Source: a virus
Virus record (IMG/VR): IMGVR_UViG_3300005573_000054
Span: 64,001-128,000 of that record
Length of the DNA: 64,000 bases
Reading direction: 5' to 3' (one strand)
Part shown: piece after piece, positions 1,262-64,000 of the stretch
How positions within the stretch are numbered: the stretch's first letter is position 1
Layout: every line of letters begins with the position of its first letter
Position numbers and translations under genes: made by a program
The notes under the pieces: generated by a model
The model's database searches: none
Told to the model about the DNA's origin: nothing
Seen by the model: only the letters and a program-made list of their open reading frames with translations

Positions 1262-1765
1262 ATGAAGTCTTATTCAGAAATGTATGTGTCAGGAAATTCT
1301 GAAACGGGAAACGTCTTTTTAACGTCGGGATTCCTTCCACCTTTTCAAGAAGAAGATTTATTAAAACAGATAGATGTTTCTTGTCATTTTCAGAGTTACG
1401 CTACAGGAGGGTCAATCCTTCATCTTTTCCTGGGGGAAGAGATAAGTGTTGAGAAAAAAGTCGACATTATCAAAAAACTTACAAGTACACCGCTACAGTA
1501 TTTCACACTGACTTCAACCTTGATGAAATGTAATAATTGTAAAGAGAAGATTGTAGGGAAACATAATGTATGTCCTAAATGTAAGTCAAAAGATGTGACT
1601 TTATGGAGTAGGCCAATTGGGTATTTTAGACCGGTTTTAAGAGATAATATTACTGGTGATTTTACGAGTGCAAAGTATCAATACTGGACTAAACCTAGAG
1701 TAGTAGAGTTCTCTCAAAGACGTCTAGTTGTTGAAGATGACTACGAGACATTTTTAGATATGTAG
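1262..1765 (+). CDS. nrdD: Class III RNR C-terminal part (Zn ribbon and glycyl-radical loop) as a separate ORF
   Basis: QSYATGGSILHLFLGE, CNNC..CPKC, WSRPIGYFRPV glycyl-radical motif. Confidence 0.88.
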   Translation: MKSYSEMYVSGNSETGNVFLTSGFLPPFQEEDLLKQIDVSCHFQSYATGGSILHLFLGEEISVEKKVDIIKKLTSTPLQYFTLTSTLMKCNNCKEKIVGKHNVCPKCKSKDVTLWSRPIGYFRPVLRDNITGDFTSAKYQYWTKPRVVEFSQRRLVVEDDYETFLDM

Positions 1766-1773
1766 GGAAATTT

Positions 1774-4700
1774 ATGTTTGACGTGAGTGTTAGTCTTATC
1801 TATAAAACGAAGCAGGGAGAAGAACGAAACTTAATCCCGTATTGCTCAAAACTAGAGTTTGATATGGGGTGTCGTATCTCAAACCTGTTAAGGTGGGGTA
1901 TTGTCAGGTATCACACCAATTTTGACGTTCTTAGAACTCTGGATAGATCTTCAACGGAGCTTTTGGAGATTTATCCTCTTGACACCCCGTTTTCACTAAT
2001 CATCAAGACAAAGACAAACATTGTGGAAATTCCACTGTTATGTACTAATATCGATGTGATTCGAGACAACACTCAGAGGGACGGGTTATATCTTCATGAG
2101 AAACTTAATCAACCTCTAGAGTGGATTTTCGTACCAGCATACGAGATCTTCCTTAATAGGGATTCTCAACTTAAGGAATTGAATTTCTTTGAAAATTATA
2201 TTACTCCAGAGAAAGTTATACAGAAGTTTATAGACGATGATCCATCGTTTAGTATTTCACAGACAGAGGTTCAGAAAAGAGATTTTACGTATAAGATAGT
2301 AACAGGTCAGAGTTCTCCCGGAACAAAGCTTCCTGGAGCTCTCAAAAGTTCTTTTACGAAACAGGCTTTAAAGGGACAAGTTCAACGGAGGTTGGGGATA
2401 ATTAGCTCACTTCTCGCGACTTGTAACTCAATACTTGATACTATTACGAATATTATCAATACGTCTTTCTCTTTTTTCAATGGTTTCATAAAAGATGTTT
2501 GTAATAAAATATCAAATCTTATTAGAGGTGTCGCTCAGAAAGTTAGAGGTTTACTTTTTGACATACTAAAATCACTTCCTAATGCCGGAACACTTCTAGG
2601 ACCTATCTTAACGGTACTTGAAGTGTTCCAACAACTTTTTCAAGGAATCATTGGTCTTGTTTCGAAGATCATGCAACCAGTGAGAAGTTTAATCTCAGGT
2701 ATTTTTAGAACTATATCTACTCTTGTGGGATGTGCTGAACAAGTCGTGTCATCGGTTTTAGCAATTCCATCTGCTCTTTTTATGGGAGTGGAATCTGTGT
2801 TTGAAACAGTATTAGGAATTCCAAATACTTTTATCACAGCATACGATAGTAATTACAAGTGGTGGTCGGGAAAAACTAATCAATTAACAAATCTTATTGA
2901 CGATCTTTCGATTATTCTTCCTCAATATAACTGGTATCTCCCTCCATCACTTACCAAAAACTACAAATTGAAATTAAACAACATTTGGCCTCAGACATAC
3001 ACCTCAACACAGATATCATATATACCAACATACACCCCTAAACCATATATTTTCTCAGAGAACGTTTCGGGAAACCTGCAACAGGTGGAAGAAAAGAATA
3101 TTCCACAGGAAATAGTAAATAAACCTATTCCTATAGAGAATACTACAGAGTGGTCAGAGGCGTTTGGATCTGTAACTTCGGGTCAACCTTATATGCCCTT
3201 TGTAGGAATAGAAGAGATTTCTTCGCTAAAAAATATCATCCTAACGGGTCTTCCTTCGTATCCAGAGGATATCTCTAAGGGTGTTTCTAACGAGTTAAAC
3301 AAGACGTCGGAGACAATTCAGGCAAATAATAACATTCCAACCGAACTTAAAAAGGAATTTCAAAAAGTTACTGAGAAGTGTAATAATATAACTGAAAAGC
3401 TAGTAGATAATTCAGTACCATTTGAAGTTTTAGTCGCATCACCTATAATGGGGCCTTCTGGTTTCTTGAGTAGTGAGGTCTCTGGGGTGACGGTTAGCTT
3501 TGAAAAAAACGAGCAACCAATACCAGTGTATAAACAGACGAAACAGGTAGTTGATCAGATCATCAATATAGTAGAATCGGATCCGAGTTTTCCAGAAGAG
3601 ACGAAGAAAAGTCTTGAAGATCTTTCGTTCAATCTAGATTTGTTAATAAATTCAAAACAGAGTATTCAGTCTGGGTTCTCCATAGAAGATCCAACGTATA
3701 ATACAGCTAAAATTACTGAGAAAATTTTCTCTCAGGAAAAGTTTAAGAGTTTATCTCAAGAGTCAAGTGATCTAATCTCAGAGATGAAAAACGAGCTTGT
3801 TCAGTTTGTTGAAAACGATCTTAAAAACGAGATCAATTCACAGATACAAGATCCAGCTTTGAAAAATGAACTCCTTGATATGGCTGATGAAATCATCTCA
3901 GAGTTGAATGACAATTTTTCTGGTCTACCTCCTGAATTAACTACTATTCTCGAAGATGGTCAGTCTTCTGAGTGGTATAACAAAACAGTCGATCTTGCTA
4001 AAAGCTACTTCGTCGATCTTAATAAGTTTATCGACACGTTTACTCAAGCAATCCTTGAGACTCACGCTTTGTTAAATGACTGTGAGCAACAGACTGTTGT
4101 AGATTTAGGGATGTTTACCTCAGTAAAAGCAGACCCATTCCAAGTCTCTCTTATTATCGAGCACGATGATTATGAGACCATAGGGATAAAAGAGGCAACA
4201 GCAAAAGAATTTCCTCAATCTAAAATTCCAAGAGAAACCAAGTATTCTACTATCGCTGGTACAACTCTTGGGACTCTCTCGAGGTCGTTATATGATCTTT
4301 GTCCATGTCCTTTAGTCAATGCTTCTTCAATAGTCTATGTTGTTGATAAGTCAGAACACAAAGTGCACTATAGATACAGAGTCTATCCTGGAGGAGATAA
4401 AAGGATTGACTGGTATCTTGATTTCAGTAAAACCTCACATGATTTAACCAAAGGTCATCTTGGAGTAAAGAGTGCGGTTATTCAGACAGTAAAAAAACCT
4501 ACGAGTCTTATCACAGATTTAACGAAAAGTCCTAGTAAATTCTTTGAAACTTATACAAAGATTCGTTTAAGAACAGATACAGTTGTTGAAGGGAATCAGA
4601 TTTACACAGGATTAGATGTTCCTATGAGTGATTTTTCTAAGTCGATTTTTACAGCAGAGACACTTTATGTTGAACCAAAAGGAGGTCCTATATCAGATAG

Positions 4701-5875: not shown

Positions 5876-8800
5876 ATGAATGGACTTTTAGATTTGAAAA
5901 CACAAGATATGTATCTTTTTTATGAATGGCTTTCCAATTCAAGAAAAGATTTACCTGATCACTTTTATAAGATTAAGTCAAGAGTCTTTCTTAGCTGGTT
6001 TGCGTTTTTAGTCAACTCGAATCAAATCGGGTTTATCAACGATCTATTTAACCATTGGGATTTGTTGTCAGTTTCTTCGAGAGTAATTCTTGAGTGTTTT
6101 AAGGATCTTGTCTCGAGAGGGATAGTTACTCTTAAACCAAAGAATCAGATTGATAACTTTCTTGTGTGTTTATCGTATTCGTCAGATAAAAGAGTTCAAG
6201 ATGTAATGGATATAATAAAAGAGTTAGATCTTGATAACCAAGAAAAAGATAGAGTCTTAAGAGTGATAAAGGGGTTAAATCCTATTGAACTTCAAATACT
6301 TAAAGAAACAAATTATATTAACACTTTAAAAAGTGAGTTGATCCCTTCGGTAACAAAAGAAAAACAAGGAAACTCTTTTGTAAAGAGTTTCTTAGAGCGT
6401 CTGAATGAAACTAGACTCTACATAGAGTCTGCAAAGACAAAAAGGTCTCAATGTCAAAAAATATGTACGTTAAGACCATCAAGACAGGTAAATTTTGATA
6501 TGGGAGGAGACGAAGAGAAGATCAGAAAAGGTCAAATCGATCTTCTATTTATTGGAGAAGCTCCTGGCGAAGAAGAAGTGAAACAATCTAAACCTTTTGT
6601 AGGTCCTTCGGGAAGATTGCTTAGAGAGTATATCAACACGAAACTAGAGGGATTTTCATGGGTAATTTCAAATTCGTGTCTATGTAGACCTCCAGAAAAT
6701 AGAACACCAACGAGAGTTGAAATTGAGTGTTGTAATGAACTTCTTTTTAATCTGATCGATGTTGTTCGACCTCGAATAGTTGTAGCAGTAGGAGGCACTG
6801 CCTATATAGCACTTCGCAAATTTTTCCACAATCAATTCCCAAAAGATTTGGGAATAACCAAACTACATGGATCTTTTGAGGATTTTGCGACACCTTCAGG
6901 AATAATAAGCAAGTTATTTGTGATTGTACATCCCAGTTTCGTAATTAGAAACAAACCAAAAAATATACACTACTTCGACGAAGGATTTGAAAGACTTAGA
7001 AACCATCTTAACTCATCGAGTAGTCTTCCAACGACTACTTCTCCACAGAGTACTATAAAAGTGTTATATGATGATTCACAATCTTCGTTTCTATTTAAAT
7101 ACCCCGAGAAGTATTATGACGTTGATAAATACTCTATTGTCGACATTCAAACCTTCGAGAAGAAGATCTTGTTCTTGTGGAAAAATATCGAGACGGGAAC
7201 AACTGAGTTTAAAACTATTCCATACCAAAATTACTACTACAGTATAAGTAACACTGCTAAGCCAGTAGTTCATTCAAGTGAAGTGGATAGGAATCATATC
7301 TCTAATGTATGTCTGCTACCGTCAGGAAAGTGGGTTCAAAGTGGTTTGGGAAAGTTTTCGAGACAAGAGACTACAGAGTATGAGAGTGATGTACATGTTA
7401 CTAGTAAGTGTCTCGTGGATTGGAAGTTAGAAATAGAGAGACAGGGAAAAATCCCGAGGTCGAGCCCATTTTCATACTGTATTGTTGATATAGAGGTTTA
7501 TGTTAAAGATGGGAAGTTCCCTAAACCCGAGGAGGCCTTTTACCCTGTTGTTTTATGTTCTATATATTCCAGTTTAGATGGGTCGATGACGGTGTTTTGT
7601 TGGGATGAGTTTAATAGGGAGCTTCCGGAGCAAGATGAAGTTATAATTGAGTTGCAAGGTAAAACTAGTGAGGTACAATATAGTATAAGAAGAGTTGGCT
7701 CGGAAGAAGAGCTTATCAGAGAATCAGTAAAACAAATACTTAAACATGATGTGGTAGCAGCGTGGAATAGTATATTTGACCTTGGGTATCTTTATACGAG
7801 GTCAAATAATCTTAACTTATCTCCAGAAAAACTCTTTACTAAGATCGAAGGTCTCTCTCCTAAAGTGGATTTACCTAAGTATATCTTTGACGTTCCGGGT
7901 CTAGTCTGTATGGATTTGTTGACCTGTTATAAGTTTATAACTCCACATGAGAGGGAAAGTTTTGCGTTGGGATATATTGCGGAAACTGAGCTTGGTGTCT
8001 CGAAACTTGAGAGAGGTTCAAGGTTTAATTTTGTATGGGAGTCAGATATAAGATATAGTATTAAATACAATGTGATGGATGTTGTCTTATGTGAAAAGAT
8101 AAATCAAAAGTTAAACATACTAGAGTTCTTTAACGAGCTTAGATTTTTCTATTGTGTTAATTGGAATAGTGTACAGTCATCAAATAAAGCTCTTGATGGA
8201 TTGATATACTATTTTTGTAAGAAGAATGGTTTTTACGTTAGAAGTAAACCCAAGAAAGATAGGAGAAGAGATCTTATAGGTGGTTTCGTTCATGAACCTG
8301 TACCAGGTCTTCATGTAGTAACTCAATTCGACTTTTCAAGTCTATATCCAAACATCATCATTACAGGAAATATCGATGGAAGTTTATTATCGATGAAGTT
8401 GAAAGATCATGACGATGTACTTAGGTATATAAAATACGTTTCCAGTGATGGTAAGGAAGATTCTGAAGTGAATGTTGTGTTCTTTGATGTTGACAGTCAG
8501 ACTTCATCTGAAAGAAAGTGTTTAACGTCACAAGTAGAGAGTTATCGACAGGAGATGAATGGAACGTTTCTGTTCAATGGAACGTTTTTTGATGGAAGAA
8601 AGAAGTCTGTGTTTAGTATGATTCTTGAAGAGCTTCTTAGCCGAAGGAAACAAGAGAAAAAGCTATTGAAAGAAACTAAAGATAAGCAACATGATCTAAA
8701 ACAAAGAGTGTATAAGGTTGCGGCAAATGCACTGTACGGTTATCTTGGATTCGAGGGGTCGAGATTTATCGATCCTAACTTGGTTGAAGCTGTGACTTTG

Positions 8801-9811
8801 ACGGGTCAGATGTTAAATAAATGCGTTTCATGGTTCACTGAAGAGTATCTTGGCTCATATTTTACGCGATCGTCTCTTAATGAGTTTAGTGTTAGTGAAG
8901 ATATTACTAAAAGTGTAGTTACGTACGTAGTTGAGAACTTCTATGAACCGACGAAACATATACCTAATCGTTCGTATATAGTTTATGGAGATACTGACTC
9001 GATATTTATAAAGTCTCCAAAAGTACTCTTAAACGTCTCCGAAGAGACTCTCGAAGATATAACAAGGCAACTTAGAGATAAGTTCTTCGAGTTCACCTCC
9101 TTAGTTGGAAAGATTTTTATCAAAAATCAAAATCCAAGGTTAGTTCTCGAGTTTGAGTATCTTGGTAAGATGTTTCTTATTAATGCAAAAAAGAGGTATG
9201 TTGTTTATAGTACTTATCCCGAAGTGAAGCTCGATATTAAAGGATTTGATTTAAAGAGAAGTGATTATCCATTTTTCTTTAAGGAAAGTTATAAGAAAGT
9301 TCTGGAAATGCTTCTTATCGAAGGAAAATCTATTAAGGAAATACAAGAGTTTATACTTGTTAAAGATGAGGAGTCTCGAAGTCTTCTCAAAAAGTTCGAT
9401 CCGAGCGTCGGGAAACCAGTTACATGGGTCAGGGAATCATATAGATCTATAACTCCAGGTGTGAGAGGTATGATATTGTTTAATAACCTTTTCCAGAGGG
9501 TTTTTCAGGAAGGTTCAAAAGGAGTATTATTTCCTATACGATTACTTCCTCATTATGTTCCTCAGGAAAAACTTCAGTCATATATCAATGAATTATCTTC
9601 ATTGACTTCAGCAACATTAAATATACAGAAAGAGGTAAATGAGGCTAGGTGGTTGACTGTCCCTTGGGATATTGATAAAGAACTACTTGATCAGATACTT
9701 TCGAAGTTGAATGAGTGGTTTTCTATATCTGTGAGTGAATGGGTACAAACAATGTGGATAGATAAGATGAAAGATATAGGATTGTTGGGTAGAAAGGTAG
9801 TTCAGATTTAA
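5876..9811 (+). CDS. Family B DNA polymerase with an N-terminal family-4 uracil-DNA glycosylase domain
   Basis: UDG4 motifs: GEAPGEEE..PFVGPSG, CLCRPPENRTPT..EIECC, HPSF. PolB motifs: VDIE (ExoI), WNSIFDLGYL, FDFSSLYPNII, KVAANALYG, YGDTDS, KKRY. Confidence 0.95.
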   Translation: MNGLLDLKTQDMYLFYEWLSNSRKDLPDHFYKIKSRVFLSWFAFLVNSNQIGFINDLFNHWDLLSVSSRVILECFKDLVSRGIVTLKPKNQIDNFLVCLSYSSDKRVQDVMDIIKELDLDNQEKDRVLRVIKGLNPIELQILKETNYINTLKSELIPSVTKEKQGNSFVKSFLERLNETRLYIESAKTKRSQCQKICTLRPSRQVNFDMGGDEEKIRKGQIDLLFIGEAPGEEEVKQSKPFVGPSGRLLREYINTKLEGFSWVISNSCLCRPPENRTPTRVEIECCNELLFNLIDVVRPRIVVAVGGTAYIALRKFFHNQFPKDLGITKLHGSFEDFATPSGIISKLFVIVHPSFVIRNKPKNIHYFDEGFERLRNHLNSSSSLPTTTSPQSTIKVLYDDSQSSFLFKYPEKYYDVDKYSIVDIQTFEKKILFLWKNIETGTTEFKTIPYQNYYYSISNTAKPVVHSSEVDRNHISNVCLLPSGKWVQSGLGKFSRQETTEYESDVHVTSKCLVDWKLEIERQGKIPRSSPFSYCIVDIEVYVKDGKFPKPEEAFYPVVLCSIYSSLDGSMTVFCWDEFNRELPEQDEVIIELQGKTSEVQYSIRRVGSEEELIRESVKQILKHDVVAAWNSIFDLGYLYTRSNNLNLSPEKLFTKIEGLSPKVDLPKYIFDVPGLVCMDLLTCYKFITPHERESFALGYIAETELGVSKLERGSRFNFVWESDIRYSIKYNVMDVVLCEKINQKLNILEFFNELRFFYCVNWNSVQSSNKALDGLIYYFCKKNGFYVRSKPKKDRRRDLIGGFVHEPVPGLHVVTQFDFSSLYPNIIITGNIDGSLLSMKLKDHDDVLRYIKYVSSDGKEDSEVNVVFFDVDSQTSSERKCLTSQVESYRQEMNGTFLFNGTFFDGRKKSVFSMILEELLSRRKQEKKLLKETKDKQHDLKQRVYKVAANALYGYLGFEGSRFIDPNLVEAVTLTGQMLNKCVSWFTEEYLGSYFTRSSLNEFSVSEDITKSVVTYVVENFYEPTKHIPNRSYIVYGDTDSIFIKSPKVLLNVSEETLEDITRQLRDKFFEFTSLVGKIFIKNQNPRLVLEFEYLGKMFLINAKKRYVVYSTYPEVKLDIKGFDLKRSDYPFFFKESYKKVLEMLLIEGKSIKEIQEFILVKDEESRSLLKKFDPSVGKPVTWVRESYRSITPGVRGMILFNNLFQRVFQEGSKGVLFPIRLLPHYVPQEKLQSYINELSSLTSATLNIQKEVNEARWLTVPWDIDKELLDQILSKLNEWFSISVSEWVQTMWIDKMKDIGLLGRKVVQI

Positions 9812-10394: not shown

Positions 10395-11843
10395 ATGGAT
10401 CGATTGCTAAGTTCATCAGGAGAATCTTTTTGCCTTTTTATCCCTGGATTCGTGGGGAACATAACAAAGTGGCTGGAAGAAGCACAAAGAGATCATGGAG
10501 AAGCTTTGAAACGGGCTTTTAAAGAGTATACACCAATATTGATCGTTAGTTACGGTAACCTAATACCTCTTAATAATAAAACGATAAAGAAGCAAGATGA
10601 AAAGACTCGGTATAAAAACATCTTGTCTTACGCTTTTGAGAAGTGGAAGGATGAAACGGAATCCTTGGAAGGGATTTGTCAAATAATGTTAGATTCGGGA
10701 GGATTTCAGATCGTTGTTGGACGTATTTCGAAGGATGAAGTTCCGTTGCTCATGGAGACGTATTATAGTTTCGTGAAGACTCTAAATGAGACAGAGTCAC
10801 ATAAACTTCATAGCTTCTTCTTCCTTGATGTTCAGTTGTATAATTCGTTTGGAGTATGTATGGAACGTGAAATGGTTAAGTTTAATCTTGAGTCTGTTGA
10901 AAGGTTATTCTCTCTTGGCTTGAATAAAGATGAAGATCTTTGGAAGAAATTAATTTTTATTGTTCATCCAACGTCAACTGTAAAGTTTAAGATCTGGGAG
11001 AGAGTCGTGGATAAACTCTTTGAAAAATGTCAAACTCTTGAGGCTCTTCCCAGAAGGTATGCCGTAGGTGGTATCGCTGTTAATCCCTCAAGACAAAAAG
11101 AGTCAGTTGTGTTGTTTTGGGTGTATGGGTTGATTTATCTTTTGTGGTCGTTTCTTAAACGTGGAGTTCCTCTGGAATTCTTTTCAGGAGTTCATTTTCA
11201 TGTGTTGGGGCTTCTTAGTCTTCATTTTATAGTGGGTGTTAATATGGTTGCATATTATTTGCAACGTAAATATGGAGTGGTTCTTAATTTTAGTTTTGAT
11301 GGGACTGCCGCTGTGAGTAAAGTCTTTAGAGCGAGACGTATGGGTTTCGTTGATCCTAAGACGTTGTGTTATAAAGAGATTTCGCTTAAGTCAAAAGATT
11401 TAGGAAACCCGGTTCAAGTGGGAAGTAGTTTGACGTCTGAAACTTATTTTTATAAGATAATAAATGAGTTGTGGGAAAGCGTTGGATATGTGCCTTCGAA
11501 AGAGTATACCACAGTTTATAATAACAAGACAGAGACGTTTCACAAAGAAGTGATACCTTGGGTGTTTTTCCTTGATCCATACTTTCATCAAACATATTTT
11601 AAGAGATTCTTTGATGTGGCTAGAGAGGTAGTCGATCGTTATATTGAATCGGGTAACACCTCTAGAATTTGGGAAATCGTTAATTCAGTCTGTAGTGAGA
11701 GTTCACTCGATCATAAAAAACTCATATTTAGGCAGTTGAGTACTGTCTTCAAGATTATTGATGAAGTTATTGAAAATCCTAAAAACTACGATTTTGAGAC
11801 AAACATGTTGATGAAGTTTTATGGTATTTCAGAGGCAGAATGA
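10395..11843 (+). CDS. tRNA-guanine transglycosylase (TGT/DpdA)-like protein
   Basis: MLDSGGFQI, YAVGG, HFHVLG and SFDGT appear in TGT-barrel order. Confidence 0.6.
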   Translation: MDRLLSSSGESFCLFIPGFVGNITKWLEEAQRDHGEALKRAFKEYTPILIVSYGNLIPLNNKTIKKQDEKTRYKNILSYAFEKWKDETESLEGICQIMLDSGGFQIVVGRISKDEVPLLMETYYSFVKTLNETESHKLHSFFFLDVQLYNSFGVCMEREMVKFNLESVERLFSLGLNKDEDLWKKLIFIVHPTSTVKFKIWERVVDKLFEKCQTLEALPRRYAVGGIAVNPSRQKESVVLFWVYGLIYLLWSFLKRGVPLEFFSGVHFHVLGLLSLHFIVGVNMVAYYLQRKYGVVLNFSFDGTAAVSKVFRARRMGFVDPKTLCYKEISLKSKDLGNPVQVGSSLTSETYFYKIINELWESVGYVPSKEYTTVYNNKTETFHKEVIPWVFFLDPYFHQTYFKRFFDVAREVVDRYIESGNTSRIWEIVNSVCSESSLDHKKLIFRQLSTVFKIIDEVIENPKNYDFETNMLMKFYGISEAE

Positions 11844-13535: not shown

Positions 13536-13608
13536 ATCATGGAAAAACATCCTGATACTATCAGAGAATAAACACGATCTTTGAATTCTATGTAAGGAGG
13601 AACGTTGT

Positions 13609-15573
13609 ATGGCTGAAGAATATCAAGTACCCGTAATAGGTGATTCAATAGTGAATAAGCCTCTGAGTTCTCCAAGAATTCAGACTTATTCAGCTATTGA
13701 TAAGGCTTTTGAGAAACTGCAGAGTTTGATGGCTGAGGAGAACAAGTCTGCTATTTCTGAAGAGGCAGTAACTCCTTGGACAGGAACAGGGCCTCTAGAA
13801 AATGCAGAAGAGATGTTTCAAACTGATTTAGACTCTGATAATGAAGAGGGTGAAGACGAAGAGCATGTTGAGCAAGTTCAAGGTCTTCTAGAGGCAAAAC
13901 GTGGAAGGAAGAAGGGTCGTAGAAGTAGGAAGAAGAAGCTCTTTGAGGAAGACGACTATGACTATCTTCTAGAAGCAGATGACGAAGATATCGAAGACGT
14001 CGAAGACACTGACGAAGAGGCTGAAGAAGAACCTGAAGAGGAATCCGAGGAAGATTGGTATGATCTTCTAGAGGCAAAACGCGGAAGGAAGAAGGGTCGT
14101 AGGAGTAGGAAGAAGAAGCTCTTTGAGGAAGATGATTACGATATCGATGATCTTCTAGAAGCAGATATGGAAGACGTTGAAGACGATGAGGAGCTTGAGG
14201 AAGATTGGTATGATCTTCTAGAGGCAAGGCGTAGAAGGAAGAAAGGTCGTAGGAAGAAGAAGCTCTTTGAGGAAGACGACTATGATTACCTCCTGGAAGC
14301 GGACGATGAAGACATTGAAGACGATGAGGACGAGGAAGAGCCTGAAGAGGAATCCGAGGGAGATTGGTATGATCTTCTAGAGGCAAAACGTGGAAGGAAG
14401 AAAGGTCGCAAGAGCAGGAAGAAGAAGCTCTTTGAGGAAGACGACTATGATTACCTCCTGGAAGCGGACGATGAAGACATCGAAGATGATGAGGAAGAGC
14501 CCGAAGAGGAACCTGAAGAGGAATCCGAGGAAGATTGGTATGATCTTCTAGAGGCAAAACGTGGAAGGAAGAAGGGTCGTAGGAAGAAGAGACTCTTCGA
14601 GGAAGACGACTATGACTATCTTCTAGAGGCCGATGATGAAGACATCGAAGATGATGAGGATGAGGAAGAGCCTGAAGAGGAATCCGAGGAAGACTGGTAT
14701 GATCTTCTAGAAGCAAGGCGTGGAAGAAAGAAGGGCCGTAAGAGCAGGAAGAAGAAGCTCTTTGAGGAAGACGACTATGATTACCTCCTGGAAGCGGACG
14801 ATGAAGACATCGAAGATGATGAGGAAGAGCCCGAAGAGGAATCCGAGGAGGATTGGTATGATCTTCTAGAGGCAAGACGTGGAAGAAAGAAGGGTCGTAA
14901 GAGCAGGAAGAAGAGACTCTTCGAGGAAGATGACTATGATGTTGATGATCTTCTAGAGAGTGAAGTTGATGACCTTTTAGAGGAAGACTTTTTAAAAAAA
15001 AGTTTAGATGATTCAGGAGAATATTCTCTCGAGTCTATTGAACTTTTAGCAGAAGCTATAAAGAAGAAGTCGAAGTCTTCAAGAGGGAAAAGGAAAAAAA
15101 GAGCGTTGAAAAAGCTGATGGAAGCTCTGTGGATCCTTGAAGGAGACACCGAAGAAATTGACGATGAAGATCTAAAAGTTGATGAAGAAGGCATGGATCT
15201 TGACGAATGTGAGTTGTCTGGTAAAAACAAATACGAACTTCTTGACGAAGAGGACTTTGACGAGGGAGATTTAGAAGATTACGACTACGAAGATCTTCTC
15301 GAAGAGATTGAACTGGAAGAAGCTAAAAGAAAGAAGTCTTCGAAAAGTAAAAAGAAAGCGAAGGCTAAGAAAGTATTAGAAGAGCTTGAGACTCTACTAG
15401 AAGAAGATAAGGAAGAAGATGAAGAAAAAGACGAAGATCTCAATGAAGACCTCGATCTCGGTAATACAGACCTCGAGGAACCTGAGGAGAGAGTGATGAA
15501 GCATAACGAGAAGAAGGCTTCATTGTTCGAAGAATCTCTAGTAGAGTCTATACTCAAGGACCTGGATATCTAA
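13609..15573 (+). CDS. Acidic/basic block-repeat protein, putative prohead core/scaffold or internal protein
   Basis: AAGGAGG RBS. Seven roughly 50-60 aa repeats of basic and acidic blocks bounded by LLE/LFE. Confidence 0.6.
   Translation: MAEEYQVPVIGDSIVNKPLSSPRIQTYSAIDKAFEKLQSLMAEENKSAISEEAVTPWTGTGPLENAEEMFQTDLDSDNEEGEDEEHVEQVQGLLEAKRGRKKGRRSRKKKLFEEDDYDYLLEADDEDIEDVEDTDEEAEEEPEEESEEDWYDLLEAKRGRKKGRRSRKKKLFEEDDYDIDDLLEADMEDVEDDEELEEDWYDLLEARRRRKKGRRKKKLFEEDDYDYLLEADDEDIEDDEDEEEPEEESEGDWYDLLEAKRGRKKGRKSRKKKLFEEDDYDYLLEADDEDIEDDEEEPEEEPEEESEEDWYDLLEAKRGRKKGRRKKRLFEEDDYDYLLEADDEDIEDDEDEEEPEEESEEDWYDLLEARRGRKKGRKSRKKKLFEEDDYDYLLEADDEDIEDDEEEPEEESEEDWYDLLEARRGRKKGRKSRKKRLFEEDDYDVDDLLESEVDDLLEEDFLKKSLDDSGEYSLESIELLAEAIKKKSKSSRGKRKKRALKKLMEALWILEGDTEEIDDEDLKVDEEGMDLDECELSGKNKYELLDEEDFDEGDLEDYDYEDLLEEIELEEAKRKKSSKSKKKAKAKKVLEELETLLEEDKEEDEEKDEDLNEDLDLGNTDLEEPEERVMKHNEKKASLFEESLVESILKDLDI
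13885..14958 (+). repeat. Seven imperfect coding tandem repeats of about 150-180 bp
   Basis: Recurrent gattggtatgatcttctagaggcaa..ggaaggaagaa..ctctttgaggaagacgactatga. Confidence 0.95.
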
Positions 15574-15601
15574 AGGTCCTTTACAATTAAATAAGTATCA
15601 T

Positions 15602-15633
15602 TGAAGAAGCCACTTTCAAAGGTGGCTTCTTCA
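15602..15633 (+). terminator. Stem-loop after the repeat-protein gene
   Basis: Perfect 12-bp arms TGAAGAAGCCAC / GTGGCTTCTTCA; weak U tail. Confidence 0.6.
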
Positions 15634-15672
15634 TCACTCTTTCCAATTTTCATTAAACATGGGAGGAATAAG

Positions 15673-16107
15673 ATGGCACTTTACAGTATTATAAAAATAA
15701 CAGGGCCTGGTACAGGGACACTGTGGGAAGGCTATTTTAGATATTTCCCGTTTATCGTAAGGTGTATGACTAAACAAGATCATGATATGATGATAGGAAG
15801 ACTTTCAGCAAAATTTCTTCGTTACGAAATCATTTCAGAACAGCAACCTAAAGAAGAAAAGATAGAAGTTGAAGAAAATCTTGAGGAGAACGTTGTCAAC
15901 GTGTCAATCCACGATAGTGCTCTTCCTATCCAAGATTCTACATCGGGAAAGAGACGGGGAAGAAGAAGAGTAGAAGTCACCACTCCCTCCAACGAAATCA
16001 AGATGGAGGAAGGGTCTGATAAAACTTTAACTCAGACGGAGAATAATAGTGAGTATCAAGATCTTGTTGGACCTTCAACTGATATCAAGACTGATACAAA
16101 CGCCTAA
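15673..16107 (+). CDS. Hypothetical protein
   Basis: Start moved from the track's 15601 to ATG 15673, which follows GGGAGG. Confidence 0.65.
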   Translation: MALYSIIKITGPGTGTLWEGYFRYFPFIVRCMTKQDHDMMIGRLSAKFLRYEIISEQQPKEEKIEVEENLEENVVNVSIHDSALPIQDSTSGKRRGRRRVEVTTPSNEIKMEEGSDKTLTQTENNSEYQDLVGPSTDIKTDTNA

Positions 16108-22575: not shown

Positions 22576-23151
22576 ATGTCAATGGTTAAAGGTCGTGTTG
22601 AAATCAGGAAGATCGTTTTTCCTTCTAACAGAGAAGAGCTTATATTAAGTACTAATAATCTCGTTGTCTATACAGGAAGAGAGTTTGTTTTGCCATCTCT
22701 ACTAAAATACGATAATCCGAACATTACTCCAAAAGCTTCTTGGGGTTTATATTTCTGGTCTGTTGGTAACGGAGGTTTATTAAATCCTCTTGATCCTTTG
22801 ACGAGAATTCCTCCCAATCCTTCGGATGTTGGACTTAATAATGAGTTATCTGGTCTTGATATCAACGATCCTAACACTACTCCAGATGGAAGAAAAAGAA
22901 GGTTTTCTAACGTTACTTTTGTACAGGACACGATAAACGATAATAAATATCTTATAACTTCTCTTTCTATGTATATTGGTAGTAGTGAGCTTGTTGGCTC
23001 TTCTATTTCAGAAGCAGGTCTATGGATTTCTAACGATTCTAATGCGAAATTTCCTGGTCTTCAACATGTTCTTTTTTCGAAAGTGACGTTTAATCCCGTA
23101 CAGAAAGCTTCATCGTTCTCTTTAGTAATTACCTGGTATCTTTACACGTAG
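22576..23151 (+). CDS. Baseplate/tail-collar structural protein
   Basis: NLVVYTGRE..ISEAGL..FSKVTF..K...SLVITW pattern typical of fibre-attachment proteins. Confidence 0.6.
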   Translation: MSMVKGRVEIRKIVFPSNREELILSTNNLVVYTGREFVLPSLLKYDNPNITPKASWGLYFWSVGNGGLLNPLDPLTRIPPNPSDVGLNNELSGLDINDPNTTPDGRKRRFSNVTFVQDTINDNKYLITSLSMYIGSSELVGSSISEAGLWISNDSNAKFPGLQHVLFSKVTFNPVQKASSFSLVITWYLYT

Positions 23152-25122: not shown

Positions 25123-27804
25123 ATGATAGCAGTTTCACCAGGTGTCTATACAAGTATTACTCCTTTGAGTAGCTACGTTCAAGAAATACCTTCTAGTACT
25201 GGGTTCATCTGCTTTTTCTCAAATAAAGGTCCAGATAACCAACTGAAGGTAGCGACAAGTGTAAATTCTTTTCTCAAACTGTACGGAGATCCCGATTACT
25301 TGAAATATGGTGCTGTGTATGGTGGTGGTCAGCACGTGGCCTTTTCTTTCATTCAGACTTCTCCTAAGTGTTACGTAATGAGAGTGTTACCGTATGATGC
25401 CACTTATGCAAATAGGATGTTCTTCTTTGGAGCAGAAAAACCGTTTAGGTTACAGTCTAAGGTAGGAAGTGTAACTCTTTCTTTCAGTGCAACAACAGGA
25501 GTAATGAGTTTTTCAAGTAGTGGTATACAAATACTGGGTGATGGATATCTTACTGCAGAGTTTCCGACATCAGATGAAAATGTGTGGTTGATTGTTCGTC
25601 AAGATGGAGGTATGTCTGTAAGAATTAGTGGTGCAAGATCAATGAATGAAGCGACACTTCATCTGATGTCTGGTTCCGATGTAACTGGTTCGATAAGAAT
25701 CGATGCAAAAGGAAACATTTATGTTAACGGACATGGCTCTGCTACAATAGACTGTACAGATCCGTCAACAGGTTCAGTGTTTATGTTTGCCGATGATATC
25801 GACATGTTTGTCTATGATAAACCCATAAACAATGTTACTTCAAAGGATTCTGTGGATCTTGAAGTGATAAAGAATAATCTGAAATCTACATTTAGACCTC
25901 TTTACTCACTTTCTGGATATGGAGTAATCATTGGGTCTCAGATTGATGCAACAACTTATAACGTCTTGAAAAGAAGACTCCTTCCAAAAGAAAGATCTCT
26001 AGTTAAACAACTTCTTGTAGTACCTGATCTAACGGGAAATACTTATTATACTGTAAAAATTGATCCTAATACTATGAACTTCCAGATTGATCAACTTGAT
26101 ACAGCTAAGTGGGATGTTGAAGACTCGAGACCTTACCAAGTTGTTATAGGTCAAGATATTTATGAGCTTAAGTATGATGAAGCAAATACAAGACTGGTGT
26201 GGAAACAAGTTTCAGGGCAAGTTGATGATCTATGGAACAGTTTTATGTTCGATATGTCTCCTATGTTGATGGTGTTTGGGAAGTATAGGGGTCAATATTA
26301 TAATGGTTACAGAATTAGCTTCTTGAGTGTTCTAAATAGGGAAAATACGTTTTCGTTTAATGTTTACGAATATAAGAAGGTTTCAAAAACCGAGGCCTTG
26401 GCGGGAAGCTACTATATTAGCTTTGATCCTGATGCTGTTGATCAGTCTGGACAGACTATATTTATCAAAGATGTGATTGATAGATATAGTGAAGACGTGG
26501 AAGTGAAAGTCTATTCTTATGAAAAGTACGATGAGTTAATCGAGTTCTTGAATAATTATGGTTATTTGATTCAAGCTAAAGTTGTATCAGATGTGACTAC
26601 TCTTCTAACTCCTGGGTGGTATTATATAAAGAAAGATGCAACTGTTGGAACTAATACTTTTTCAATAGATTTTTCTGACTATCTTGGACGATTAGTGTTT
26701 ATAAGGTCAGATGGTCACTTGTTTAATAATAATAACCTTGTGTTTTCTACGAATATTGGAGCAATATTAACCAACGAAGATATCATTTTTAAAGACGAAG
26801 AAACAAACACTTGTCAATATTTAACTCCAGATGAGATTATACTTCCTTTTAAGTTTATACAAAATACGTTAGTTGAACACTCTATATCTGATTATCTTTA
26901 TGGTGAGGGAGTAAATCTTGGTGCAGGTACTGATGGACAGTTGTTTTTACCAAATGGAAAAATTAATGATAGTATCGCTAAGTCTCTTCTTGTCAACGCG
27001 TATACAGGACAGATAGATCCAAATGTTACCGATACAGAGTTTGTGTGGTATGATATAGTCTTAGATGGAGGATATCCGACTGACGTAAAGAGTGCGATTG
27101 TGACGCTTGTTCATGAAATAAGAAGGGATTGCATAGCTTTGCTTGATAATGGTGATAATAAAGATCCACAGGAAGCTCTTGATACTCGTATGAAACGTCA
27201 TACGTGGAACTCTGAATACGTAGCAGTCTATGAACCCTATATTCAGATCTATGATCAGTTCTCAGGACGTGATATCTGGGTATCACCTGTGTATGCAGTG
27301 GCAAGGCTTCTTGCTTTAAATGATAGGGTTAATGAAGTTTGGTACGCTGTAGCAGGTTACAGAAGAGGTATGACTCCTGTAATCAAGGGTATTAGATATA
27401 GCCCAAGGTTGAGTGAAAGAGATGACTTCTACCTGAACCAGATTAACCCCTTTGTGAACTTTAGAGAAGGAACAGTCTTGTGGGGTCAGTTAACTTCAAG
27501 AAGGATGACAGACGCTCTACAGAACTTGAACGTTATGAGATTAATACTTTACTGTAAGAGAGCGTTAGAACAGTACTGCAAGTACTTCATCTTTGAGTTC
27601 AATGACTCTATAACTTGGGAAAATATTAAGAAGGGAGTTACGGGATTCTTGGCTGATGTTCAGAGAAGAAGAGGTCTGTATAGCTTCAGTGTTAATGTCT
27701 GGGCTGATGAATACGCTATTCTAAGGAAGTCGGCGTATCTTGATGTAGTGTTGTTCCCGACAAGGGCTCTTGAGAAGATTTACTTGAACTTCTACGTAAA
27801 GTAA
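25123..27804 (+). CDS. Contractile tail sheath protein
   Basis: SPGVY N-terminus, WYAVAGYRRG, YLNQINP, WGQLT, LNVMRL, FIFEFND. Confidence 0.95.
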   Translation: MIAVSPGVYTSITPLSSYVQEIPSSTGFICFFSNKGPDNQLKVATSVNSFLKLYGDPDYLKYGAVYGGGQHVAFSFIQTSPKCYVMRVLPYDATYANRMFFFGAEKPFRLQSKVGSVTLSFSATTGVMSFSSSGIQILGDGYLTAEFPTSDENVWLIVRQDGGMSVRISGARSMNEATLHLMSGSDVTGSIRIDAKGNIYVNGHGSATIDCTDPSTGSVFMFADDIDMFVYDKPINNVTSKDSVDLEVIKNNLKSTFRPLYSLSGYGVIIGSQIDATTYNVLKRRLLPKERSLVKQLLVVPDLTGNTYYTVKIDPNTMNFQIDQLDTAKWDVEDSRPYQVVIGQDIYELKYDEANTRLVWKQVSGQVDDLWNSFMFDMSPMLMVFGKYRGQYYNGYRISFLSVLNRENTFSFNVYEYKKVSKTEALAGSYYISFDPDAVDQSGQTIFIKDVIDRYSEDVEVKVYSYEKYDELIEFLNNYGYLIQAKVVSDVTTLLTPGWYYIKKDATVGTNTFSIDFSDYLGRLVFIRSDGHLFNNNNLVFSTNIGAILTNEDIIFKDEETNTCQYLTPDEIILPFKFIQNTLVEHSISDYLYGEGVNLGAGTDGQLFLPNGKINDSIAKSLLVNAYTGQIDPNVTDTEFVWYDIVLDGGYPTDVKSAIVTLVHEIRRDCIALLDNGDNKDPQEALDTRMKRHTWNSEYVAVYEPYIQIYDQFSGRDIWVSPVYAVARLLALNDRVNEVWYAVAGYRRGMTPVIKGIRYSPRLSERDDFYLNQINPFVNFREGTVLWGQLTSRRMTDALQNLNVMRLILYCKRALEQYCKYFIFEFNDSITWENIKKGVTGFLADVQRRRGLYSFSVNVWADEYAILRKSAYLDVVLFPTRALEKIYLNFYVK

Positions 27805-27825
27805 ATAGATAGGAGGTTATGATAA

Positions 27826-28530
27826 ATGCCTTGGAATGATAATGTTTTTACGAGAGTTTTTGGTGGTACAAAAGAGACGTATGTAGGTGACCCGTTTGTA
27901 CGAGGTTATGGATACTGGTGGATAGATCTACCAGAGAGTCTTAAAGACGTGAGTGCGGCTGATAGTGCGAAACTCGCGGCGCTTGCTCGTGGAGTAACAG
28001 GACTTGCTTCAATCACTCTTGATGTGGAAGATATAGAGGGTCTCGGTGGAGTAAGGTTTGCTATTCCTACAAAGTTGACTATGCCAAGTAGAGTGTCGGT
28101 AACGTATATGGAAGTTCAACAGAACTTTATCTTCAACTTGCATAACAGATGGATCAATATGATTAGAGACCTTAGGTATGGTACAACTGCTCTTATGGGT
28201 CTTGATGGATATACTAAGTCGAAGTACTCGGGAATAGGGTACACCTGGTTGACTCTTCCCGACGGTGAGACGATAGTAGAAGCATACGTCTTGACAGGTC
28301 TTGTACCCACGACTCTTCCTGTATCAGACATGGGATTTGAGCTTGGTACTGTAGGTAAGGTCGATCTGACGATCGAGTACGCATTCGACCATATTTACTT
28401 CTACAGGATTCCCGATGAGAGCGCTTCTGCTACAAGTACTGGAATCTCTAGCGCGTTTGAGAGTAAGTTAAAGGGTCTAATTGGAGAAGTCAAGAAGTAT
28501 TATCAACAGTTTAACAACTCACTGGCTTAA
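27826..28530 (+). CDS. Tail tube protein (gp19-like)
   Basis: Directly follows the sheath gene; size and pattern (W..MI.D..G..Y...G..P) fit tube proteins. Confidence 0.8.
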   Translation: MPWNDNVFTRVFGGTKETYVGDPFVRGYGYWWIDLPESLKDVSAADSAKLAALARGVTGLASITLDVEDIEGLGGVRFAIPTKLTMPSRVSVTYMEVQQNFIFNLHNRWINMIRDLRYGTTALMGLDGYTKSKYSGIGYTWLTLPDGETIVEAYVLTGLVPTTLPVSDMGFELGTVGKVDLTIEYAFDHIYFYRIPDESASATSTGISSAFESKLKGLIGEVKKYYQQFNNSLA

Positions 28531-61895: not shown

Positions 61896-64000
61896 ATGGC
61901 TACTTTTATTCCGTCTCTTGCCACTCGATCGCTAATATATGCTGCAAAGTATGTTCCATCGAAAATTCTATCGAGAAAGAGAGAACCTTCTGAATCTCCG
62001 CTTTCTCGGAAGCTTTTAGGTGAAAGTAGACGGATTAAAGCATTAATTCCTGTAAATATTTCACGGCTAAGAGCGCTTCCAGAGAAACTTGAAATCTCTA
62101 GACGTGAGTTGAAAACACTGTCAGTAGCTTCTGTTTCTCCAGTAGTCGCGGCTTTCCAGTCGCTAGTTGCCGATGAGCAAGACGTTATCTCTGCAAATTT
62201 TGAAAAGCAAAATGAAATCATCTCTGAACAAGTGAGAGAGACAAAAGGCATTAAATTCTTTCTTGAAGAGAAGTTGTCTGGAGTGATCGGTAGTGGTTTT
62301 TGGGAGTATCTGGGTATTAGTAAAGGTCTGCTAAAGAAAGGGTTTGTTGCTTGGCTTGCTTCTATACCTATACTTGAACGATTCGCCTTTCAACCTGGAT
62401 TTAGTAAAGGACAGCTCGTAAGTGACGCGCTGAGACAGTTTACCACGACTTTGTTAGGTAAAGGTAGTGTAGTATCAGGAATTGCGTCAATTTTCGCAGA
62501 CACTTTTATAGGAAAATTCTTTGAGAGACTTTCAGAGCCAAAGAGTGCTTTCGGAAAACGTCTATCTGCATTTTTCAAGTTTATAGAGACAATGCCTACT
62601 AAGGCACCGCTATTGACTGATGTTTTGCTTAGACAACTGTACTCAAAATCACCCTTTTTGGGTATGGCTGGAAGCGCTCTTGGAGGTATGAAACCATCAC
62701 AAACTCTTAAATACCTGTGGATGCCTCGACTTATACCTGGATGGTCGTCTCTGCCAATTATACAGATGTTCATTGAAGGATTTCAGGCAAGTCTTAAGAA
62801 AATCCTTGAAGCCACTGAGAAAGCAAGAGAAAAGCTTCTTTCGTCTTTGGAAAGTCGTTTTACTAAATTACAAGAAAGCACCTCAAATTTTCTTGATAGA
62901 TGGTCGATAGGGTTTTTCAAGAGGTTCTCGAGGTTTCTTCTAGAAGAAATTCCTAGACGGATATCTGCGAGAGAGACTCTTACTAAGGGTCTCGTTAGAT
63001 CTCTGTTGCTTATCTCTCCCGAGTATAGAATGGTTGAGGGTTTAGTGACGGGAAAGACGTGGCAAATTATATATGGACAGTTTGGTAAAAAATTTCCAGT
63101 ATTGTATAAAGTCTTGAACATTGGTAAGTTTGTCGAAGATCTAGTCTTGTTCCCTTTGAAAAAAATCTTCCAGTTTCTTGATGAAAGGACAAAAGGCTTC
63201 TTATCGAGACTACGCAAGAGGATTCAAGATATCTTTAGTTTTATTATGCGAAGTATGTTCATAATGAGCTCTGATTTGTTAAAAGTGTTTTCCTCTAAGA
63301 TCGTACCAGAGGTTCTAAAGTTTGTCTTGGTTAAGATTCCATCTACTTTTTATAAAGAAATGAGAAAGATTTATGAGTCAGAGTTTTTCGTCTTTGTGAG
63401 GAAAAAGTTTAAAGAATTGTTCCAGGAAGTAAAAGGTGGCTTTTTGAAACTGGTTAGTGTAATAGGAAAACCATTTTCCAAAATACTTAAAGGAATAGGA
63501 GGATGGTTCTCTAAACCGTTTGAATTAATCAAGGAAAGATTTCCTGGAATTTTTGGAAAAGTATTTGAGAAAGTTCTTGTACCTTTGAGAAAAATTGGTG
63601 AGACCCCAATCGGAAGATATTTGAAGAGCGTGCGTGAGAGGGCTCTTAAGAGAGAGGCAGAAAGACAACCTCTATTAGGAGCTATATGGCAGGAGATGAA
63701 GGGTCTTCGTGGAGATTTTACGAGTGAAGTGATGAAGAAAGTTTCTTCTTTGCTTGAAGAGATTAGACAAAAAACTTCTGATGTTGCTGGTGAGGTTTCT
63801 TCTTCGAAGGGAATTCTACAAAAGGTTCTTGAAAAGTTTAGTTCTGTGATAGAAGAATCGTGGATTAGAGTGAGGCAAGTTTTGGGTCAAGAGCCACCTT
63901 ATTATAAAAGTAAAAGATCTGAAAGTTACGTATATACTAGTGAAAGAGCGTTTGAGAAAGAACGGAAGAAACTTCTAGAAGAGAAAAGGAGGCAGTTAGA
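61896..64000 (+). CDS. Long helical protein, probable tape-measure protein, 3'-truncated and absent from the ORF track
   Basis: ATG 61896 (MATFIPSLATRS..). The frame reads open at the start and end where checked. Amphipathic repeats such as GFLKLVSVIGKPFSKILKGIGGWFSKPF. Confidence 0.6.
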   Translation, partial: MATFIPSLATRSLIYAAKYVPSKILSRKREPSESPLSRKLLGESRRIKALIPVNISRLRALPEKLEISRRELKTLSVASVSPVVAAFQSLVADEQDVISANFEKQNEIISEQVRETKGIKFFLEEKLSGVIGSGFWEYLGISKGLLKKGFVAWLASIPILERFAFQPGFSKGQLVSDALRQFTTTLLGKGSVVSGIASIFADTFIGKFFERLSEPKSAFGKRLSAFFKFIETMPTKAPLLTDVLLRQLYSKSPFLGMAGSALGGMKPSQTLKYLWMPRLIPGWSSLPIIQMFIEGFQASLKKILEATEKAREKLLSSLESRFTKLQESTSNFLDRWSIGFFKRFSRFLLEEIPRRISARETLTKGLVRSLLLISPEYRMVEGLVTGKTWQIIYGQFGKKFPVLYKVLNIGKFVEDLVLFPLKKIFQFLDERTKGFLSRLRKRIQDIFSFIMRSMFIMSSDLLKVFSSKIVPEVLKFVLVKIPSTFYKEMRKIYESEFFVFVRKKFKELFQEVKGGFLKLVSVIGKPFSKILKGIGGWFSKPFELIKERFPGIFGKVFEKVLVPLRKIGETPIGRYLKSVRERALKREAERQPLLGAIWQEMKGLRGDFTSEVMKKVSSLLEEIRQKTSDVAGEVSSSKGILQKVLEKFSSVIEESWIRVRQVLGQEPPYYKSKRSESYVYTSERAFEKERKKLLEEKRRQL

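Follow-up and report, generated by a model that had tools for sequence, protein, structure and literature searches.

How giant phages neutralise and arrange several hundred kilobases of DNA held at near-crystalline density, and what their scaffolding cores are made of, is poorly understood. In adenoviruses, as is generally known, the maturation protease frees a short basic DNA-associated peptide within the capsid from pre-mu (pX) and pVII. In phage T4, the prohead protease gp21 breaks down gp22, gp67 and gp68, all proteins of the core, into small peptides at head maturation (PMC9958956, PMC5694885), and most core fragments are thought to escape the head (PMC9958956). Here we compare with these systems an open reading frame (ORF) at 13609..15573 on the + strand of a 64,000-bp window of viral DNA, i.e., bases 64001-128000 of the 159,483-bp IMG/VR contig IMGVR_UViG_3300005573_000054, which is rated about 50% complete. 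Its product of 654 amino acids (aa) may well be, to judge from its sequence, a prohead core (scaffold or internal) protein that is diced at L-x-E. Coordinates are window positions unless prefixed G000, which denotes the whole contig.

Charge boundaries coincide with a prohead protease motif

The protein (~78 kDa) contains 116 K/R against 256 D/E, a net charge of -140, and 40 sites of the form [L/I]-x-E. A first-pass annotation of the window had described seven copies of a repeat unit and two degenerate basic blocks, all of which are present as described, and had proposed about nine highly basic peptides of 16-23 aa, lengths that agree with ours; K/R content is very high in all nine, with charges of +9 to +11 each (+89 summed per chain), and in this sense they are protamine-like. 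[L/I]-x-E followed by Ala precedes every one of the nine blocks, so that the residue after the putative cut (P1') is always Ala, and the motif directly follows eight of them, the ninth ending V-L-E-E and giving L-E-E one residue further on. The earlier observation that changes of charge fall at L-x-E is borne out accordingly by 18/18 basic-block boundaries, each lying at or at most one residue from the motif. The precursor had also been called self-neutralised, a wording that fails because each unit carries about -15 and the whole chain -140.

Compared with composition-preserving shuffles, which define the expectation throughout, the motif is enriched over the whole protein (40 sites observed versus 21.2 +/- 3.8) and, independently of the duplication, in the non-repeat C-terminal third (aa 451-654; 17 versus 8.8 +/- 2.3, P = 0.0006). 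Over half of the alanines of the protein (16/29) stand right after a site, and when the repeats are collapsed to one unit Ala still occupies P1' in 5/22 sites, against a background of 4.8% (P = 0.003). With 6.1 sites per 100 aa the protein has the highest density of the contig, the runner-up reaching 4.1.

The gene starts 8 nt after a perfect ribosome-binding site read from the sequence (AAGGAGG, 13594..13600, + strand), and all the following segments lie on the same strand. A unique acidic N-terminal region (aa 1-95, 13609..13893), with one predicted helix at aa 27-42, ends in G-L-L-E↓A (the arrow marks an actual or candidate cut); this region shows no L-x-E enrichment over shuffles and could be a targeting or propeptide region. 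It is followed by an array of seven tandem units (aa 96-450, 13894..14958) that are predicted to be disordered and are seen in the DNA as an array at 13884-14940 with a period of 159-165 (Tandem Repeats Finder). Each unit consists, in this order, of a basic block of 16-18 aa, A(K/R)R(G/R)RKKGR(xx)RKK(K/R)LFE, with a charge of +9 or +10; an acidic-aromatic element of 9-11 aa, EDDYD(Y or I/V-DD)LLE; and an acidic spacer that varies in length, closes with DWYDLLE and is absent from unit 7. Basic block 1 reads AKRGRKKGRRSRKKKLFE (+10, 13894..13947); blocks 2-4 lie at 14074-14127, 14224-14271 and 14383-14436, and blocks 5-7 at 14554-14601, 14713-14766 and 14872-14925.

Downstream of the array, an acidic helix-prone linker (aa 451-482, 14959..15054) carries four more L-x-E sites and ends in L-A-E↓A. 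Degenerate basic block 1, AIKKKSKSSRGKRKKRALKKLME (+11, aa 483-505, 15055..15123), lies between LAE↓ and LME↓, and degenerate basic block 2, AKRKKSSKSKKKAKAKKVLEE (+9, aa 572-592, 15322..15384), between LEE↓ and L-E-E↓; they read LAE↓AIKKK...KKLME and LEE↓AKRKK...KKVLEE, and neither is a copy of the repeat unit. An acidic helical C-terminal tail with more L-x-E sites (aa 593-654, 15385..15570) completes the protein. AlphaFold2 run on the single sequence (predicted local distance difference test score, pLDDT, 46) gives disorder throughout the repeats and helices of low confidence in the C-terminal third, with no fold usable for a structure search, and neither a signal peptide nor a transmembrane segment is found in the 654 aa.

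The repeat units are old duplicates under purifying selection

Pooled over the seven units, the proportion of synonymous differences (pS) is 0.51 and that of nonsynonymous differences (pN) 0.043, i.e., synonymous divergence is near saturation and pN/pS is 0.08. The units are thus old duplicates under strong purifying selection, and this ratio implies that the + frame is translated and its peptide sequence constrained. What is invariant among them are the junctions (LFEEDDYD, LLE and DWYDLLE), while the length of the acidic spacer, K/R swaps and a two-residue indel in the basic blocks are tolerated. An antisense open frame of 374 aa (13751..14875, - strand) arises as an artefact from a repeat that lacks stops and was ruled out as a gene, because selection acts on the + frame and 151/156 of the ORFs of the contig lie on that strand.

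Homology searches return a single relative

The protein has no match in Pfam, PHROG or, in usable form, the ESM Atlas, nor does blastn against phages match it. An exhaustive phmmer search of 1.84 billion representative proteins retrieved only two true relatives, the fragments P0001 and P0002, plus two compositional matches (P0003 and P0004); word-indexed searches in the 'shorter' and 'near' length ranges returned the same two fragments or nothing. Neither the target gene nor its helicase has a related locus among viral contigs, none is found among metagenome contigs, and the ORFs of the contig include no match to the N- or C-terminal parts of the protein or to the acidic head proteins of its clade. 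No precedent for such a protein was found in the literature.

P0001 and P0002 share 93-95% identity with the N- and C-terminal parts of the target and lie on one Logan contig of 1,021 bp. In P0001, the N-terminal region runs into one basic block, followed by the end of unit 7; the relative may truly possess an allele of one unit, or its assembly may have collapsed. The idea that the number of copies can be tuned has in its favour one relative with one basic block, and against it that this lone 1,021-bp contig may be a collapsed assembly. Between target and relative, the first and last residues of the sites (P3 and P1) differ in 0/39 cases and the middle residue (P2) in 2/14 (LLE to LME, and LEE to LKE, so that the second site of degenerate block 2 reads L-K-E↓ in the relative), compared with 19/241 elsewhere. 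This pattern is as would be expected for an L-x-E motif with a free middle residue, the conservation of P3/P1 in these sequences being only borderline significant (P about 0.04-0.06).

The phage encodes a T4 gp21-type protease

A prohead protease, which the first-pass annotation had proposed to look for, is encoded at G000 27651-28307. It is of the T4 gp21 type (Pfam S77, PF03420, 62.7 bits; PHROG 207 'head maturation protease', E = 8.5e-37) and 32% identical to T4 gp21, with His69, Ser133 and Asp160 at invariant aligned positions. The major capsid protein (MCP), a member of the T4 gp23 family whose closest solved structure is 7X30, is encoded by one of only five minus-strand ORFs (G000 1580-3061, L002:1580-3061), and the portal gene lies at G000 5147.

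Cleavage specificity can be approached through the relatives of this phage. The GenBank record of the phiR1-37 MCP gives an experimentally determined 'mature N-terminus at Ser87', the three residues just before it (84-86) being LQE. The aligned site reads LQE↓S in AR9 and LLE↓Q in the MCP of the present phage, ~15 residues before a conserved P-I-L segment, and the MCP propeptides of phiR1-37 and AR9 contain five L-x-E each. Two sites are candidates for maturation of the present MCP, at residues 16-19 (ILE↓A) and 75-78 (LLE↓Q), the latter aligning with the phiR1-37 site. T4 records give LTE↓A (gp23), LRE↓S (gp24), IAE↓A (IPII and IPIII) and ITE↓A (IPI), and T4 Alt is cut at ITE-6 and LTE-619, while phiKZ-type phages use A/S/G-x-E (PMC5694885, PMC10052503). 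The clade and T4 thus cut after L/I-x-E, the extension to the enzyme of this phage being indirect. A different protease motif, which had been named as an outcome that would speak against the proposal, is not what the phiR1-37, AR9 and T4 sites suggest; as for the expected cut of the capsid protein at L-x-E, it holds for phiR1-37, which matures after LQE, and reaches the present MCP indirectly, through the aligned LLE only.

Comparison with described core and internal proteins

In T4, acidic and basic tails, bounded by the protease motif and never clear in their role, are found on separate core proteins: gp67 has three sites and then a purely acidic tail, and gp68 five sites and then a 71-aa basic tail, so that charge blocks bounded by a protease motif already exist in the T4 core. 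T4 gp22 has 16 sites in 269 aa, or 5.9 per 100 aa (5.8 +/- 2.1 sites expected), compared with an unenriched 0.5-1.8 per 100 aa in the sheath, tube, portal, Hoc, UvsW and other non-substrates. The 654-aa protein resembles gp22, gp67 and gp68 in being acidic overall and saturated with L/I-x-E (6.1 per 100 aa), but differs from them in fusing acidic and basic elements in one chain with a sevenfold unit, in its far more extreme charge and in the position of its gene, away from those of the protease and MCP; no similarity to the three T4 proteins was detected by sequence or profile. By mechanism it would be best seen, on this analogy, as an exaggerated variant of the core and internal proteins processed by gp21, a much expanded functional analogue of gp22 plus gp67 plus gp68.

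The T4 internal proteins (IPs) offer a second comparison, as basic, head-retained products released at IAE↓A or ITE↓A, the same junction that precedes the nine blocks. However, these are single proteins of 8-20 kDa with an N-terminal leader of 10-19 aa and charges of +2 to +9 over 95-193 aa, as opposed to repeated candidate peptides of 16-23 aa and +9 to +11 within a polyprotein.

From the same clade come hyper-acidic proteins of AR9 and phiR1-37 (AR9 g116, g163 and g164; phiR1-37 g129, g130 and g134), which have charges of -27 to -91 and contain L-x-E sites, but lack basic blocks and a tandem unit and are weakly enriched in the motif. Hyper-acidic proteins are packaged in this clade: in phiR1-37, g129 (-52), g130 (-27) and g134 (-29) are annotated 'phage structural protein', and g134, like AR9 g116, lies directly upstream of the MCP gene. 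No homology was detected between the target and these clade proteins, including AR9 g164. In AR9, g163 and g164 (L017:35408-36541) are annotated as hypothetical and lie downstream of the virion protein g165. AR9 g164 is a 199-aa protein with a charge of -91 and 16 L/I-x-E sites (8.0 per 100 aa; enrichment z = 1.7), and g163 (-28) has a duplicated ...EETLVE unit and resembles phiR1-37 g130 (E = 2e-4), of which it is a plausible homologue; both have probably been missed as proteins of the head core in the AR9 clade. A weak homologue of g165 exists in the present contig, with no hyper-acidic gene downstream of it.

In the jumbo phages phiKZ and SPN3US, inner-body and ejection proteins inside the head also receive multiple cuts after Glu, by gp175/gp245 (S80) (PMC10052503, PMC5694885), but at A/S/G-x-E and yielding large folded proteins. 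The adenovirus precursors pre-mu and pVII belong to another lineage, protease family and motif, and release one peptide per precursor without acidic spacers.

A probable prohead core protein, its proposed mechanism and the evidence against it

Taken together, these results confirm the observation made in the first-pass annotation and partly support its interpretation. The signal that we regard as diagnostic is the motif at charge boundaries plus Ala at P1', not its density, since SPN3US gp22 is motif-poor and the AR9 HNH nuclease g032 motif-rich, so that density alone is not diagnostic. On the reading that we hold to be the most likely, a prohead core protein, the course of prohead entry, cleavage at these sites and fragment fate that we infer is as follows. 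The protein would assemble into or onto the prohead core via its alternating charge blocks and helical C-terminal part. Once activated, the S77 protease would cut after [L/I]-x-E at up to ~40 sites, releasing the nine basic peptides, each beginning with Ala, and ~30 short acidic ones. The 78-kDa chain would thereby be reduced to peptides of at most 51 residues, most of them shorter than 35 and small enough to leave the shell; the acidic pieces would exit or be displaced by incoming DNA, and the basic ones would either exit too or stay bound to DNA.

Such a protein would be an exaggerated, modular version of what T4 distributes over separate tails, with nine polycationic and ~30 polyanionic peptides per chain joined at protease-motif junctions. 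Should it belong to the core, its design suggests that large prohead cores work on the principle of patterning charge in blocks. It would also offer a simple rule for designing scaffolds that remove themselves and for delivering peptides into capsids.

Several observations weigh against assignment to the prohead core. The protein has no homology to known head proteins and lacks a short T4-like N-terminal targeting leader. Its gene lies outside the head module, in the interval between helicase and baseplate genes and not between the portal/protease and MCP genes, and AR9 keeps the same succession of helicase, two small ORFs and baseplate genes with no such gene between, which makes the target an additional gene where two modules meet in a conserved order. 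Because the contig covers only about 50% of the genome, a scaffold gene of the conventional type may sit in the missing half; within these 159 kb there is no other scaffold candidate beside the protease or MCP gene. The high motif density is not specific, AR9 g032 reaching 6.8 per 100 aa (z = 5.4) with no link to the head, and L-x-E could belong to another short linear motif, e.g., (W/Y)xD/Y-LLE. In SPN3US, the candidate scaffold gp22 is not acidic and contains 1 A-x-E site over its 617 aa, and a general rule that scaffolds are saturated with the motif of their own protease, which was considered, fails on it.

Regulatory signals add a further point of this kind. The heptamer GAACAAA occurs in 31 + strand copies in the contig, 12 of them in intergenic DNA (5% of the contig) and 32-66 nt upstream of gene starts; it precedes the portal, prohead protease, virion RNA polymerase (vRNAP) beta', virion structural protein and tail fibre genes and, within the window, the genes starting at 22576, 30456, 53356, 53802, 54244 and 57392, and is a good candidate for a phage promoter element. 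Upstream of the target there is only GAATAAA at -43, with a position weight matrix (PWM) rank of 86/151 that 31% of random windows equal. This GAATAAA was dropped as evidence for a late promoter, its PWM score being at chance level. A scan for sigma-70 promoters and terminators gave nothing above chance and no signals isolating the target gene. N-terminal L-x-E leaders, considered as a signature of head proteins, were likewise dropped, as they are not enriched genome-wide (32/156 ORFs versus 21% expected).

Alternative explanations and the fate of the basic peptides

The main rival, possible if rather unlikely, is that the protein acts in the cytoplasm as a blocky polyampholyte that mimics nucleic acid or serves as its decoy, chaperones basic DNA-/RNA-binding proteins or forms condensates that organise replication. 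EEDWYD and EDDYDY would then be DNA-like or binding motifs, the Arg/Lys blocks would bind nucleic acid, and L-x-E would be another linear motif or serve in helix capping. The position of the gene directly after those for the DNA polymerase with a uracil-DNA glycosylase (UDG)-like domain, the PDDEXK nuclease and the DnaB-like helicase, from which no terminator separates it, argues for this, as do the lack of a detectable late-type GAACAAA upstream, the predicted disorder of the repeats, an invariance that reaches aromatic and acidic residues beyond a minimal cleavage site, and the L-x-E enrichment of AR9 g032, a protein without head link. It leaves unexplained, however, why all blocks, the degenerate ones included, begin with Ala after [LI]xE and end with [LI]xE, why in the relative P3/P1 stay constant and P2 does not, and why the site density equals that of T4 gp22. 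Those phage DNA mimics that are known are folded proteins, and the 1.84 billion representatives contain no similar protein to support such a family.

Within the prohead core reading, the fate of the basic peptides is a separate matter. That they are retained as protamine-like DNA counter-ions while the spacers are discarded, with repeat number tuning the dose, is doubtful. In its favour, +89 per chain at 600-1500 copies (assumed by analogy with the T4 core, PMC9958956) would neutralise ~8-21% of the phosphates in a genome of 320 kb, and Ala after [LI]xE is also found in the retained T4 products IPI*, IPII*, IPIII* and gp23*. The packaging of the HU-type g131 by phiR1-37, with no HU found in the present contig, is consistent with it, and so are the AdoMet decarboxylase gene upstream of the protease gene, which suggests an investment in counter-ions, and the one basic block, instead of seven, in the gene of the relative. 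Against it, T4 core fragments are mostly thought to escape (PMC9958956), the precursor is strongly negative and not neutral, the single block of the relative on the 1,021-bp Logan contig may be due to repeat collapse, the HU search spans only half of the genome, and polyamine synthesis could equally make peptide counter-ions needless. In its fullest form, which we put forward with somewhat greater reserve still, the ORF would encode a phage-made protamine: a DNA-like polyanionic polyprotein would fill the prohead and mask nine polycations, incoming DNA would expel the acidic fragments by ion exchange, and the basic ones would remain, at a dose set by repeat number, which would be one block in the relative and seven here at roughly 90% identity. 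If basic peptides are retained, this system of protamine-like counter-ions would be the first that a phage encodes.

Very improbable is a multi-copy precursor of cationic peptides acting on the host (membrane-active, lysis-related or antimicrobial), processed by any protease and masked by anionic pro-pieces: repeated cationic peptides with anionic spacers do match the eukaryotic multi-peptide antimicrobial precursors known in general, but the blocks are nearly all K/R/G/S with only a terminal L-F and have no amphipathic or hydrophobic face, signal peptide and transmembrane segment are absent, and the junctions fit the prohead protease of the phage, not dibasic or signal-type sites. That the ORF is a low-complexity repeat expanding without function, or a frame called in error, as the orphan status, extreme composition and long antisense open frame might suggest, is scarcely credible, being effectively refuted by the pN/pS of 0.08 and opposed by the perfect ribosome-binding site and the 93-95% identity of the N- and C-terminal parts in the relative.

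Genomic setting and other observations

The phage is an AR9/phiR1-37-like jumbo phage, its nearest cultured relatives (20-30% identity) being Listeria LPJP1, Yersinia phiR1-37, Bacillus AR9 and PBS1, and the Staphylococcus S6/PALS2 group. Its contig has 156 called ORFs, 151 on the + and five on the - strand, and carries large terminase and both split and unsplit multisubunit RNA polymerase genes in addition to the portal. Upstream of the target lie genes for the family-B DNA polymerase with the UDG-like domain, the PDDEXK nuclease, a protein of unknown function and the DnaB-like helicase; downstream are two small ORFs of unknown function, a gene for a baseplate-wedge-like protein, and tail sheath, tube and fibre genes, the baseplate gene having no useful matches in cultured phages.

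Among the neighbours, the ORF directly 3' of the target (15601-16107) has no family match and carries a polybasic patch similar to those of the target, SGKRRGRRRVEV, within an otherwise acidic C-terminal half. The polymerase ORF (5876-9811) encodes 1,311 aa with an N-terminal UDG-superfamily domain at aa 220-374 (PF03167, E = 5.4e-22), a notable feature given that the cultured phages of the clade (AR9/PBS1, phiR1-37, S6) contain uracil DNA. Between the PDDEXK nuclease and helicase genes, the ORF at 10395-11843 (482 aa) has a weak PHROG match to queuine tRNA-ribosyltransferase (E = 0.0074) and, taken with the QueD gene of the contig, may encode a DpdA-like DNA transglycosylase.

That QueD/6-pyruvoyl-tetrahydropterin synthase gene (PF01242, E = 3.2e-29; L003:7118-7612) and an AdoMet decarboxylase gene (PF02675, E = 1.2e-26; L003:6682-7089) occupy G000 26682-27612 and so immediately precede the protease gene on its upstream side. 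They point to polyamine synthesis, polyamines being DNA counter-ions, and probably to 7-deazaguanine modification of the DNA.

In phiR1-37, g131 (L009:1694-2056) encodes an HU-type 'histone family DNA-binding protein', flagged as structural, whose gene lies in the cluster beside the capsid gene; no HU homologue was found in the present contig, about half of the genome. The basic outlier of this genome is a 1,353-aa ORF running from window positions 61896-63998 on to G000 129957, with a net charge of +79 and long Gly/hydrophobic stretches, which looks like a tape-measure or ejection-type protein.

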